Below, in pieces: positions 9,921 through 55,533 of a stretch of DNA of 64,000 bases. The position numbers were made by a program, and so were the translations under genes. The notes beneath the pieces were generated by a model. The model was not told the origin of the DNA, did no database searches, and saw only the letters and a list, made by a program, of their open reading frames with translations. Numbering within the stretch: position 1 is the stretch's first letter; each line of letters opens with the position of its first letter. Source of the stretch: Rubrivivax sp. GTDB lineage: Bacteria > Pseudomonadota > Gammaproteobacteria > Burkholderiales > Burkholderiaceae_C. Where the stretch lies: assembly GCA_046087245.1 (NCBI GenBank), contig JBJTZN010000091.1, positions 2,842 to 66,841 on the forward strand, given 5' to 3'.

Positions 9921-11651
9921 CTAGAACAGGAAGTAGCGCTGCGCCATCGGCAGCGACAGCGCCGGCTCGCAGGTCAGCAACTGGCCGTCGGCGCGCACCG
10001 CGTAGGTCTGTGCATCGATGTCCATCACCGGCAGGTAGCCGTTGTGCACCATGTCGGGCTTGCGCACCGTTCGGCAGCCCTTCACGGCCGACAGCGTCTT
10101 GCGCAGTCCCAGGCCCGCCGCGGCGCCGTTGGCCAGTGACGCCTGGCTGACGAAGGTGATGGAACCGTTCGCCAGGGCCCCTCCGAAGCTGCCGAACATC
10201 GGCCGGTAGTGCACCGGCTGAGGCGTCGGGATGCTGGCGTTGGGGTCGCCCATGGCCGCCGCGGCGATAAAGCCCCCCTTGAGGATCAGCGCCGGCTTGA
10301 CGCCAAAGAACGCCGGCTTCCACAGCACCAGATCGGCCCACTTGCCCACTTCGATGCTCCCCACCTCGTGCGCGATGCCGTTGGCCAACGCCGGGTTGAG
10401 GGTGTACTTGGCCACGTAGCGCTTGACGCGGAAGTTGTCGTTGCGCTCACTGTCCTGGGGCAGTGCGCCGCGCTGCGCCTTCATCTTGTGCGCGGTCTGC
10501 CAAGTGCGGATGATGACCTCGCCCACGCGGCCCATGGCCTGGCTGTCGCTGCTCATCATGCTGATGGCGCCCAGGTCGTGCAGCACGTCCTCGGCGGCGA
10601 TGGTTTCGCGTCGGATGCGGCTTTCGGCAAAGGCCAGGTCCTCGGCGATGGCGGCGTCCAGGTGGTGGCACACCATCAGCATGTCCAGATGCTCGTCCAC
10701 CGTGTTGGTGGTGTAGGGCATGGTGGGGTTGGTGCTGCTGGGCAGGAAGTTGGCCTCGCCCACCACCTTCATGATGTCCGGCGCATGCCCGCCGCCCGCG
10801 CCCTCGGTGTGGAAGGCGCACAGCGTGCGGCCCTTGGTCGCGGCAATGGTGTCCTCCACGAAGCCCGACTCGTTGAGCGTGTCGGAGTGGATGGAGACCT
10901 GGGTGTCGGTGGCGTCGGCCACGCTCAGGCAGCAGTCGATGGCACTGGGCGTGGTGCCCCAGTCCTCGTGAAGCTTCATCCCGATGGCCCCCACCTGTAT
11001 CTGCTGCACCAGGGCCTCGGGCCGGCTGGCATTGCCCTTGCCGAGGAAACCCAGGTTCATCGGGAAGGCCTCGGCCGCCTGCAGCATGCGGGCGATGTTC
11101 GCCGGCCCAGGGGTGCAGGTGGTGGCGAAAGTGCCGGTGGCCGGTCCGGTGCCGCCGCCGAGCATGGTGGTCACGCCCGACATCAAGGCTTCCTCGATCT
11201 GCTGCGGACAGATGAAGTGAATGTGGCTGTCAATGCCCCCTGCAGTGAGGATCATCCCTTCGCCAGCGATGATCTCGGTGCCCGGGCCGATGACGATGTC
11301 CACGCCGGGCTGCACATCCGGGTTGCCGGCCTTGCCGATGCCGCAGATGCGCTGGCCGCGCAGGCCGATGTCGGCCTTCACGATGCCCCAGTGGTCGATG
11401 ATCAGCGCGTTGGTGATCACGCAGTCCACCGCGTCACCCGCTCCGGGGCCGTTGCGGCGCTGGCTCTGGCCCATGCCGTCGCGGATGGTCTTGCCGCCGC
11501 CGAACTTGACTTCCTCGCCGTAGCCGCCCGAGCGCAAGGTCAGGTCCTGTTCCACCTCGACCACCAGGCCCGTGTCGGCCAGGCGGACACGGTCGCCCAC
11601 GGTGGGGCCGTACATCTCGGCGTAGGCGCGCCTGCCCACCGTCGCCATCAC
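9921..11651 (-). CDS. ureC: urease subunit alpha
   Basis: ORF 9921..11651. It reads [29 protein letters not shown], with HFICPQQ and MVCHHLD motifs. Its ATG overlaps the ureB stop (ATGA). Confidence 0.97.
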
Positions 11652-51865: not shown

Positions 51866-51956
51866 AACTAGAGTGCAACCCTAGTGGGCGCTGCCTTGGA
51901 TGACAGGGTGGACGCCTCTGCCAGCCTGCACCCTGCCTCCCGCCCAGGAGTCCGCC

Positions 51957-53663
<1,707 letters not shown>

Positions 53664-53687
53664 TCGTGCCGGGGCTGTGTTTCGCGG

Positions 53688-53792
53688 GCACGGGCGGCTG
53701 GGGCGCAGTGCTCCGCTCATGTCCCCCGCGACGGGCTGAAGCCCGTCGCTCCTCCTTTACTTCGCTGCGCACTGCGCCCCAACCGCCCGTGC
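53688..53792. repeat. hairpin repeat module 1 (23-bp outer stem A/A' enclosing 59-nt core B)
   Basis: A is 53688-53710 (gcacgggcggctggggcgcagtg). It pairs with A' at 53770-53792 (cactgcgccccaaccgcccgtgc) with one C:A mismatch. Core B at 53711-53769 contains the hairpin gcgacgggc-tgaa-gcccgtcgc. Confidence 0.85.
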
Positions 53793-53849
53793 TGGTAAGC
53801 ATTACGGTCCTCGTGGAGTTGTGGTCGAAGCGTTCTGTCGGGCCGGCAG

Positions 53850-53952
53850 GCTCGGGAGGTAAGGTAAGTCCCGCAGCGAAGTAAAGGAGGAGCATCGGGC
53901 GAGAGCCCGATGCGGGGGACATGAGCGGAGGGACTTGCCTTGCCTCCCGAGC
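53850..53952. repeat. hairpin repeat module 2, inverted relative to module 1 (22-bp outer stem C/C' enclosing core B')
   Basis: C is 53850-53871 (gctcgggaggtaaggtaagtcc). It pairs with C' at 53931-53952 (ggacttgccttgcctcccgagc) with two T:G positions. Core B' at 53872-53930 is the reverse complement of B except for the central hairpin (gcatcgggc-gaga-gcccgatgc). Confidence 0.85.
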
Positions 53953-53994
53953 TCGAAAGATCTCCAAACGCATAAGAATCGAGCAAACCAACTC

Positions 53995-55533
53995 ATGATC
54001 CTGAATCCCGGCCGCCTCACCCTTGACGCCTTGCAGGCCCTTCATGCCGGCGGCGTTCCGTTGGAGCTCGCCTCCACTGCATGGCCGGCCATCGAGGCCA
54101 GTGCGGCGGTGGTGCAGCGGGCCGCGGCCGGCGATACCCCGGTCTATGGCGTCAACACGGGCTTCGGCAAGCTGGCCAGCACGCGCATCGGGGCGGAGGA
54201 CCTGGCGGCCCTGCAGCGCAACCTGATCCGCTCGCACAGCGTGGGCGTGGGCGGGCCGATGGCCGCGCCCGTGGTGCGTCTCATCCTGGCGCTGAAGGCG
54301 GCCAGCCTGGCGCGCGCGCACTCGGGCGTGCGGCCGGTGGTGATCCACAAGCTGCTGGAGGTGTTCAACGCGGGCCTCGTGCCCCACATTCCTTCCCAGG
54401 GTTCCGTGGGCGCCTCGGGCGACCTGGCACCGCTGTCGCACATGACGCTGGCCTTGCTGGGCGAGGGGGAGTTCGTCGTCGACGGACAACGTCAGCCCGC
54501 CGCCGAGGTCTTGCGCGCTCACGCCATCGCGCCGCTGGAGCTGGCGGCCAAGGAAGGCCTGGCGCTGATCAACGGCACGCAGGTCTCCACCGCGCTCGCC
54601 CTGCACGCGCTGTTCAGCTTCGAGCCCGTGCTGGAGGCGGCGCTGGTCATCGGTGCGTTGACGGTGGACGCCGCGCGCGGCAGCGACGGCCCGTTCGATC
54701 CGCGCATCCATGAACTGCGGGGCCAGCCGGGGCAGATTGACGTGGCCCGCTACTACCGCGCGCTGCTGCAGGGCAGCGAGATCCGCTCCTCGCACCGCGA
54801 GGGTGACGACCGCGTGCAGGACCCGTACTGCCTGCGCTGCCAGCCCCAGGTGGTGGGCGCCTGCCTGGGCCAGCTGCGCCACGCCGCGCTGGTGCTGCTG
54901 CGCGAGGCCAATGCGGTGACGGACAACCCCTTGGTTTTTGCCGAGGACGGCCAGATGGTCTCCGGCGGCAATTTCCACGCCGAGCCCGTGGCCCTGGCCG
55001 CCGACGCCATGGCGGTGGCCATCGCCGAGGTCGGGGCCATCGCCGAGCGCCGCATCGCCATGCTGATCGATGCCAACGTCTCGCGCCTGCCGCCCTTCCT
55101 GTGCGCCGACCCGGGCCTGAACAGCGGCTTCATGATCGCGCACGTGACAGCCGCCGCCCTGGCCAGCGAGAACAAGTCGCTCGCGCACCCGGCCAGCGTC
55201 GATTCCCTGCCCACCAGCGCCAACCAGGAGGACCATGTCAGCATGGCCACCTTCGCGGCGCGGCGCCTGCAGCCCATGATCGCCAACGTGGCCCACATCC
55301 TGGGCATCGAGTGGCTGGCGGCGGCGCAGGGCGTGGAGTTCCTGCGGCCCCTGCGCAGCTCGGCCCCGCTGGAGGCGGCCCATGCGCTGTTGCGACAGAC
55401 CTGCCCCGCCATGATGCAGGACCGCTATCTCGCACCCGATATCGAGGCCGCTACGGCGGCCGTTCAGAAGGGCCAGGCGGCCGGCGTGCTGCGCCAGCTT
55501 GCGGGTTTGCCTGCCTTGTGGGTGGCCGCATGA
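53995..55533 (+). CDS. hutH: histidine ammonia-lyase
   Basis: ATG 53995 in ORF 53935..55533 ([20 protein letters not shown]). The MIO-forming motif [12 protein letters not shown] is present. Confidence 0.96.

Follow-up and report, generated by a model that had tools for sequence, protein, structure and literature searches.

The hutU-hutH spacer of a Rubrivivax contig holds an inserted copy of a structured, doublet-organised intergenic repeat family

In a stretch of 64,000 nucleotides from Rubrivivax sp. (assembly GCA_046087245.1, contig JBJTZN010000091.1, positions 2,842 to 66,841 of the forward strand), called here the window, the genes for urocanase (hutU) and histidine ammonia-lyase (hutH) are separated by a 331-bp gap, from the stop codon TGA of hutU (53661-53663) to the start of hutH (53995), that holds two oppositely oriented hairpin modules. 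A preliminary description of this DNA read the modules as a structured repeat family constrained to fold on one strand, possibly co-opted for translational coupling between both genes. Our analysis indicates that the spacer is an element inserted into a formerly overlapping gene junction, and that this element belongs to a real, structured intergenic repeat family resembling the REPIN, BIME and ERIC repeats. The best explanation, which we consider probable while keeping considerable reserve, is that the spacer arose by insertion of a single unit of a repeat family that is structured, non-autonomous and organised in doublets, comparable in kind to the REP/BIME/REPIN or ERIC repeats yet separate from them.

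The two modules, of ~105 nt each, are arranged head to head (Table 1), and the features ascribed to them in the preliminary description were recovered in full, position by position. Their cores (53711-53769 and 53872-53930) are 59-nt inverted copies of each other, 88% complementary, and the core flanks of 22 and 19 nt are indeed identical between both copies; each flank occurs twice in the window, against an expectation of about zero by chance. The outer arms, 22-29 nt long, are self-complementary within their own module, with extended pairing of 53688-53716 with 53764-53792 and of 53850-53877 with 53925-53952, and the inner hairpins, of 9 bp, are distinguished by changes on both sides of the stem that preserve pairing (gcGAcgggc versus gcATcgggc). 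The imperfections fall on one strand of the element: in module 2, two positions are T:G on the plus strand, and the C:A of module 1 on the plus strand is a G:T on the minus strand. The computed RNA fold of module 2 reaches -70.4 kcal/mol on the plus strand, which carries AAAGGAGG, versus -57.6 on the minus strand, and that of module 1 reaches -80.3 kcal/mol on the minus strand, which carries AAAGGAGG in this case, versus -73.5 on the plus strand, with z-scores near -10. A covariance model of the family (R1) finds module 1 at 53676-53801 (minus strand, 116 bits) and module 2 at 53840-53965 (plus strand, 111 bits), both with E ~1e-23, and no third copy within the 64-kb window.

Table 1. Positions of the features of the hutU-hutH region, numbered along the window. 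P1, outer stem; P2, inner hairpin; ORF, open reading frame; SD, Shine-Dalgarno sequence.
Feature	Position	Strand	Basis
hutU (urocanase) ORF	51900-53663	+	ORF list; orthologous genes with Pfam urocanase domains
Module 1 3' tail, ccgcgaaacacagccccggcacga on the - strand	53664-53687	-	left edge of the inserted segment
Module 1: P1 arms 53688-53710 / 53770-53792, structured core 53711-53769, P2 53728-53749	53688-53792	-	inverted repeats
Doublet centre, spacer between both 5' ends	53793-53849		
Module 2: P1 arms 53850-53871 / 53931-53952, structured core 53872-53930, P2 53892-53913	53850-53952	+	inverted repeat
Module 2 3' tail, now the A/C-rich, SD-less leader of hutH	53953-53994	+	missing at empty sites
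ORF of 25 codons opened by the core ATG; its end overlaps the hutH start as ATGA	53921-53998	+	translation; judged incidental
hutH (histidine ammonia-lyase), 512-aa product, PF00221	53995-55533	+	homologues equally long

The modules are not particular to this locus. A scan with the exact pattern TAAAGGAGGAG-N10-30-GGGGGACATGAG listed at least 120 loci in a collection of species-representative genomes and at least 120 in a metagenome collection, and the family counts given here rest on these listed loci (designated by L numbers). The hosts among the matches listed are mainly Burkholderiales, mostly Rubrivivax, Hydrogenophaga, Rhodoferax, Caldimonas and Aquabacterium, with Ideonella, Methylibium, Polaromonas, Rivibacter and Hylemonella as further hosts of the same order; the others are Sulfurisoma and the Xanthomonadales Luteimonas and Pseudoxanthomonas. 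Among the carriers are Hydrogenophaga pseudoflava, H. flava, H. taeniospiralis, Caldimonas mangrovi, Rivibacter subsaxonicus, Aquabacterium parvum, Sulfurisoma sediminicola and Pseudoxanthomonas sp. NC8. The closest relatives of the window's HutH likewise point to a Rubrivivax-like source. One metagenome-assembled genome (MAG, JBDTIO01) contains at least four loci with differing stems (L003, L012, L037, L079), and ~8 extra units in ~1.7 Mb of flanking DNA suggest tens of copies per genome. No match to the element was found in plasmids by blastn or in viral contigs by scanning. The preliminary description had not recognised the element, in keeping with our own searches: no Rfam family matches the spacer at its gathering score, the hits at E <= 10 are spurious miRNA-precursor models far under their cut-offs, the core strings retrieved only unrelated primers from the literature, and a literature search on RAYT and REPIN in the host taxa returned only ecology papers. 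The repeat family is widespread and apparently undescribed.

The usual unit of the family is the doublet. All 35 loci with two exact cores present them as in the window, the minus-strand module first and the plus-strand module second with their 5' ends facing, and the gap from core to core is ~112 nt in these 35 doublets and 122 nt in the window. Degenerate partners were recovered by relaxed matching, the covariance model and nhmmer; by nhmmer, the genome set contains 90 doublets versus 42 singles, ~18 of which lie at contig edges, and the metagenome set contributes 72 further doublets, with inverted doublets making up about 70-80% of copies. The two halves of a doublet differ from each other, the outer arms being 0.43 identical within one doublet versus 0.49 between doublets, and the P2 sequences of partners having 0.51 identity. 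Recurrent arm types (gatcagg... with gccaagg...) co-occur at unrelated loci in different genera, which indicates that a doublet spreads as a whole. Deletion can give rise to singles; at the hut locus L125, module 1 is fused to the 3' arm of module 2 and the core ATG is deleted. The position profiles of the flanks contain no conserved terminal motif, and conservation fades ~34 nt past the core.

Several observations concern the surroundings of the modules. The exact centre of the doublets is often occupied by the palindrome TTCGAC(n)GTCGAA (e.g. L097, L022, L118, L087), and a weak mini-hairpin, GCCACC-NNN-GGTGCC, precedes each module. A sigma-54 reading of the flank GGCACC..GGTGGC was rejected because its spacing varies by 3-5 nt, as in a small hairpin. 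In four loci the centre is expanded: by a lower-GC gene with a 284-aa Bro-N/DinD-like product (L138:415-1676), by a 223-aa gene without significant family match (L223:355-1565), by a long palindromic element (L143:5398-5812) and by a classical GTAG-type REPIN (L241:1982-2341). Neither the L138 protein nor the L223 protein is a transposase. The doublet centre may thus act as a hotspot of insertion. The motif GTCCGCAAnGGGCCGCAAGC, made of two small hairpin-like units, recurs 25-45 nt past the outer stem at both ends of many Sphaerotilaceae-type doublets (L083, L088, L005, L022, L017, L026, L047, L099, L006), and therefore the repeated unit may exceed two modules.

The fold of the modules is backed by covariation and is strand-specific. 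In an alignment of 139 non-redundant modules, many of them akin to one another, RNAalifold returns an outer stem of 23 bp together with the basal pairs of the inner hairpin, with double compensatory changes in 25 of the 27 pairs. For a structure of 30 pairs, 93.8% of the cells are paired, versus 64.0% after column shuffles and 36-38% with slid partners, and the covariation score is 0.768, versus 0.198 and ~0.1, respectively. Both helices are thus free in sequence while their pairing is kept. On the strand that carries AAAGGAGG, the mismatches of the outer stem are G:T in 301 cases versus A:C in 85, and those of the inner hairpin are G:T in 42 versus A:C in 8; this excess identifies the AAAGGAGG strand as the folding strand. 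The preliminary description had opposed to its structured family a plain palindrome with many copies in random contexts, free of covariation and wobble bias; the copies are indeed many and lie at unrelated sites, but strong covariation and strand bias accompany them, and the constraint on the folding of one strand that it proposed is borne out, also by compensatory changes in the orthologous hut copies.

The core between both helices is itself structured. Its pairs were examined in 38 partner modules without a match to the exact pattern, in order to avoid ascertainment. The pair C43-G105 is replaced by U-A in 10 modules; A46-U102 is replaced by G-C in 10 and by C-G in 1, partly independently of the changes at C43-G105 (L053, L086, L060, L064); A54.G96 is swapped to G.A in 11; and the tandem G44.A104 / A45.G103 turns into the Watson-Crick pairs G-C / A-U in 3-4. 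N40-N108 also covaries, and the Xanthomonadales copies have G-C in place of the flanking G.A pairs. The U and G of the "ATG" of the core are U102 and G103, partners in A46-U102 and A45.G103, and A54, which lies within the SD-like box, has G96 as its partner. The unpaired remainder of the loop consists of purines only, GUAAAGGAGGA opposite GGGGGACA. A C(GNA)G triloop caps 159 of the 289 distinct inner hairpins (55%).

From these data, each half of the element, ~125 nt long, would fold on its own AAAGGAGG strand. The outer stem P1, of 23 bp and with a sequence free to vary, would be extended by pairs that are largely non-canonical (G.A, N-N, A.G, G-C, C-G, the tandem G.A/A.G, and then A-U) and would open into a purine-rich 11 x 8 internal loop with an A.G pair, with the variable hairpin P2 as a cap, most often in the form of the C(GNA)G triloop. 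Some modules carry a palindromic insert of 43-75 nt, GAGAG-CCCGGACACAAACAGTCC-AGTGG-ACTGTTTGTGCCTGG, in some cases with another small hairpin after it. It is found in different genomes and loci, always at the core position GGGGGA^CATGAG (L132:1184-1226, in the orthologue of window module 1, and L002, L021, L026, L039, L075). Window module 1 lacks this insert, which was therefore gained recently in L132; the insert represents a nested element with site specificity or else an optional expansion hairpin that exchange between copies has spread.

The hut junctions of close relatives reveal what the spacer interrupted. At the empty junctions, cTTGATGATCC (L124, L130, L131, L126, L128), the TGA of hutU overlaps the ATG of hutH, and the HutH proteins of L124, L130 and L131 are 94-95% identical to that of the window. 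The occupied junctions are those of the window, L132 (HutH 94%), L058 and the remnant in L125 (91%), and the insert lies at TTGA(T)^...^(A)TGATCC. The tail of module 1 (53664-53687), which is similar to the weak family tail yCGC..CAAC..GGCAC, is missing at the empty sites L124, L130 and L131, and the tail of module 2 provides the stretch ..GAATCGAsCArACCAACyc ATG common to the occupied alleles of the window, L132 and L125. The presence of the element between hutU and hutH is therefore polymorphic among close relatives. Occupied and empty alleles interleave in hutH distance, which implies a history of loss, re-insertion or allele exchange.

Once inserted, the cores, and to a lesser extent the stems, remain conserved. 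Between orthologous hut copies, identity amounts to 0.95-1.00 in the cores, 0.81 / 0.54 in the fast-evolving centre and 0.71 / 0.57 in the right tail, next to 0.78 / 0.84 for the third codon positions of hutH. The stems contain compensatory replacements, of C-G to A-T in L132 and of C-G to T-A in L058, and the four extra wobble pairs of L058 are all on the element strand. One inner hairpin of L058 has been replaced wholesale and L132 has gained a 43-nt palindrome inside a core, which suggests sequence exchange between copies. For the host, the hut insertion would be a passenger that broke an ancestral TGATG stop/start overlap; it would place two hairpins of -70 to -80 kcal/mol in the hutU-hutH transcript and leave the hutH start on the unstructured, A/C-rich tail of the element.

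The genomic contexts of the copies are unrelated to each other, and the copies adjoin the 3' ends of genes. Of 156 cores, 155 are intergenic, and the 202 flanking proteins fall into 147 clusters, so that the element is tied to no gene family. Of 71 doublets, 50 are in tandem, 20 in convergent and 1 in divergent gene contexts, versus a background of 431, 91 and 87 adjacent gene pairs, and the median distance is 42 nt to a gene 3' end and 80 nt to a gene 5' end; these figures come from a crude GC3-based gene finder, in which start codons are approximate. For about 60% of the modules, the gene that they face is on the opposite strand, and the module that the transcript of a flanking gene meets first is antisense. 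Singles within operons are antisense in 6 cases versus sense in 2, in addition to L125. The spacer of the window contains no sigma-70 promoter and no terminator in our scan, and no promoter is conserved upstream of the modules.

One convergent locus of Hydrogenophaga, present in five genomes including relatives (L007, L009, L062, L082, L096), has an intrinsic terminator between each gene and the doublet; the two terminators are nearly identical (gggagcc-tttg-gctccc and then T6) and point inward. At this locus, the two module types occur in opposite order between the flanking genes in different species (A-Y-X-B versus A-X-Y-B). A search for a partner gene next to multiple modules (L036, L014, L068) found only ordinary genes, IS21 and a tandem duplication: a ~504-bp tandem duplication carries a module and a degenerate partner at L068:1000-2200, and at L014:3800-5462 an istA/istB pair, IS21-like by sequence resemblance only, adjoins a doublet.

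Among known elements, the closest in organisation are the REP, BIME and REPIN repeats, which are likewise extragenic, palindromic, multi-copy and chromosome-only, imply folding of a single strand, form inverted doublets of fixed spacing (here 35 of 35, with a gap of ~112 nt), and lie next to gene 3' ends while being rare between divergent genes (1 of 71 here). They differ from our family in having modules of 20-40 nt instead of 105-125 nt and a conserved stem or terminal 5' GTAG/GTGG instead of a conserved structured internal loop, in folding with the partner where the present modules fold on themselves, in reaching hundreds of near-identical copies where ours appear to be tens, and in their RAYT, of which none was found in the loci examined here. 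The presence of a classical GTAG-type REPIN inside the centre of L241 indicates that the two systems are distinct. The ERIC or IRU repeats of enterobacteria are imperfect palindromes of ~127 bp that also lie in transcribed intergenic regions at low copy number with a patchy distribution between strains, and they display an unusually high conservation across genera with structure-preserving changes. However, they occur in other taxa with an unrelated sequence and are a single palindrome, in contrast to the head-to-head doublet of two different hairpins described here, and they are not known to have a comparable non-canonical covariation of the loop.

The Correia or NEMIS elements of Neisseria and other miniature inverted-repeat transposable elements (MITEs) share with our family a length of ~100-150 bp, inverted symmetry, intergenic location, co-transcription and the presence/absence polymorphism at orthologous sites, as in the hut junction (L124, L130 and L131 empty; window, L132, L058 and L125 occupied), but have near-identical terminal inverted repeats and clear target duplications, whereas the termini here are unconserved and the stems differ. 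The attC sites of integrons are also variable hairpins with a conserved structure, of which one folded DNA strand is recognised and whose imperfections are strand-specific. Since they conserve the outer R''/R' core sites (GTTRRRY) and extrahelical bases and are directly oriented after cassettes, while here the outer stem is variable, the centre conserved and the modules inverted, they were ruled out. The ends of IS200/IS605 or PATE elements, which are subterminal hairpins on the same strand and in the same orientation, were discarded as well because our modules are always mutually inverted. The Burkholderiales-1 RNA motif is a multi-copy hairpin with 33 copies in Polaromonas sp. JS666, whose downstream genes are usually on the opposite strand and which lacks a terminator U-run; its authors rated it as doubtful as an RNA (Weinberg et al. 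2010, PMC2864571). It is far shorter (~55 nt, GGCGCCGCAGAACCGGCUUUGCCGGGCUGCCGGCGUCG...), with a different sequence and no AAAGGAGG / GGGGGACAUGAG core, and no doublet was described for it (PMC2864571). An identity with this motif was rejected, as its published sequences share neither core nor length with the modules. The element fails the defining sequence and size features of REP/BIME/REPIN, ERIC and Burkholderiales-1, and with its variable stems and invariant structured loop it reverses the pattern of conservation of all three.

How would such a family persist? In the explanation that we favour, two different halves stand head to head at a fixed spacing, and the invariant structured loop would be the docking site of a trans-acting, chromosome-encoded protein that would spread or maintain the element; this protein could be a RAYT-type, single-strand-specific nuclease or transposase, or a factor that binds RNA or DNA. 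That stems are free to vary while a purine loop is invariant across two orders points to a specific protein partner. We lean towards single-stranded DNA, rather than mRNA, as the more likely folded species because C(GNA)G triloops prevail in P2, no promoter is conserved, the first module and most singles are antisense, terminators flank the Hydrogenophaga doublet and the family is chromosome-only. The C(GNA)G loop belongs to the d(GCGAAGC) class of exceptionally stable DNA mini-hairpins, RNA hairpins favour GNRA or UNCG tetraloops, and REPIN-RAYT systems are likewise restricted to chromosomes.

Several points weigh against this explanation. No gene is flanked by modules in the fashion of RAYT in the ~1.7 Mb of DNA around the loci, where no partner protein was found, and the orientation of singles relative to the local GC skew is unbiased (17 to 17). 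The copies within one MAG are strongly dissimilar, so there is no evident recent transposition. Conservation is reversed with respect to classical REPs and MITEs, with the loop conserved and the stems free. The hut site has no unambiguous target-site duplication, TGA or TGATC being possible as the repeat, and recombination from strain to strain could explain the interleaving of alleles as well as excision or re-insertion. The invariance of the 23 scanned bases partly reflects how the copies were found, and quasipalindrome correction during replication could mimic part of the compensatory change. As regards the choice of DNA, the covariation of the tandem G.A pairs to Watson-Crick and of A.G to G.A is a classic signature of RNA motifs, and for the 50 of 71 doublets in tandem contexts, the operon transcript carries the sense strand of the downstream, gene-proximal module.

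The alternative that best survives the data, possible although we think it rather unlikely, is a functional structured RNA motif of 3' untranslated and intercistronic regions, whose purine-rich loop binds a conserved RNA-binding protein or RNase and controls the decay, processing or polarity of mRNA, the doublet ensuring one sense copy whichever way transcription enters. Besides the non-canonical covariation just mentioned, an RNA of this kind would be consistent with the tolerance of G:U-compatible mismatches, the exclusion of the element from divergent, untranscribed promoter regions, the optional expansion hairpins at one fixed loop position, the conservation of the cores in situ and the very high stability of the hairpins (-70 to -80 kcal/mol). 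It accounts poorly for a folding strand that is antisense to the nearest upstream gene in the proximal module and in most singles, for the lack of a conserved promoter, for terminators that shield the Hydrogenophaga doublet, for GNA triloops in P2 where GNRA or UNCG tetraloops would be expected, for the lack of an Rfam match and for neighbouring genes that are unrelated.

A bolder proposal, which we regard as doubtful, is that the family represents a new class of folded single-strand recognition element, in which a stem of 23 bp, a helix of tandem G.A pairs and an 11 x 8 loop made up entirely of purines (GGAGG facing GGGGG, possibly purine-purine or G-quartet-like) would be read by a chromosome-encoded enzyme, with the doublet centre as a landing pad for cargo. 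The landing pad is suggested by the DinD-like Bro-N gene, the unknown gene, the classical REPIN and the palindromic element that sit inside centres. If true, this would be a new partnership between host and element, parallel to REPIN-RAYT.

Long-range pairing of the two cores, which the preliminary description had raised as a competitor of the local hairpins, would turn the doublet into one giant hairpin as in REPIN, and we consider it improbable as the functional state. The proposal stands as a computed optimum: the cores are complementary over 59 nt, and the minimum-energy fold of the 331-nt plus-strand RNA is the giant hairpin, at -191.7 kcal/mol, versus only about -144 kcal/mol for the sum of the two local hairpins. 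Evolution, by contrast, keeps the local stems. Covariation backs P1 and P2 and not the giant hairpin, the P1 arms are less alike within a doublet than between doublets (43% versus 49%), the partner P2 sequences differ, and the local hairpins would form first during synthesis.

The weakest reading, very improbable in our judgement, takes the core as a split ribosome-binding site (SD, hairpin, AUG) whose short ORF is coupled in translation to hutH by way of the ATGA overlap. In its favour, AAAGGAGG would match a 16S rRNA tail that ends in CCUCCUUU as assumed, the folding of P2 brings the SD-like box to ~8 nt from the AUG, the TGA (53996-53998) of the 25-codon ORF opened by the ATG at 53921 overlaps the hutH start, and this start, backed by homologues of 512 aa, follows aaccaactcATG without an SD. 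Nevertheless, both supposed signals are structural, as the AUG is a base-paired element that has given way to ACG or AUU-type variants, with matching changes in its partner, in at least 14 modules (ACG with A-to-G in 10, UC for GA with Watson-Crick pairing regained in 3-4), A54 of the SD-like box covaries with G96, and the AUG is inside a hairpin of about -70 kcal/mol. The coupling is not conserved either: in the orthologues the ORF ends 20 nt before hutH (L132) or past its start and out of frame (L058), its ATG is deleted in L125, the ORFs from the core ATG that end near a downstream start are 16 of 53 in frame 0 versus 14 of 53 in a control frame among modules facing a same-strand gene, and the majority of modules facing opposite-strand genes also speaks against a ribosome-binding role.

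Elsewhere in the window, Rfam reports a match to 5_ureB_sRNA (103.7 bits, 11189-11487, plus strand), antisense to the 5' part of the ORF for the urease alpha subunit (9921-11651, minus strand), which most likely represents conserved coding sequence rather than a small RNA gene.

The significance of the locus is thus that of a new family of folded intergenic repeats and not of a translation signal of hutH, and the hut case exemplifies an element that splits a translationally coupled pair of genes. For annotation it carries a caution, since the perfect SD-like box and the ATG within the element are structural and mark no start site. With its strong covariation, the family joins a small set of bacterial intergenic repeats that conserve their structure instead of their sequence, and its hosts are abundant and poorly studied Burkholderiales of freshwater and soil, of which cultured representatives exist.

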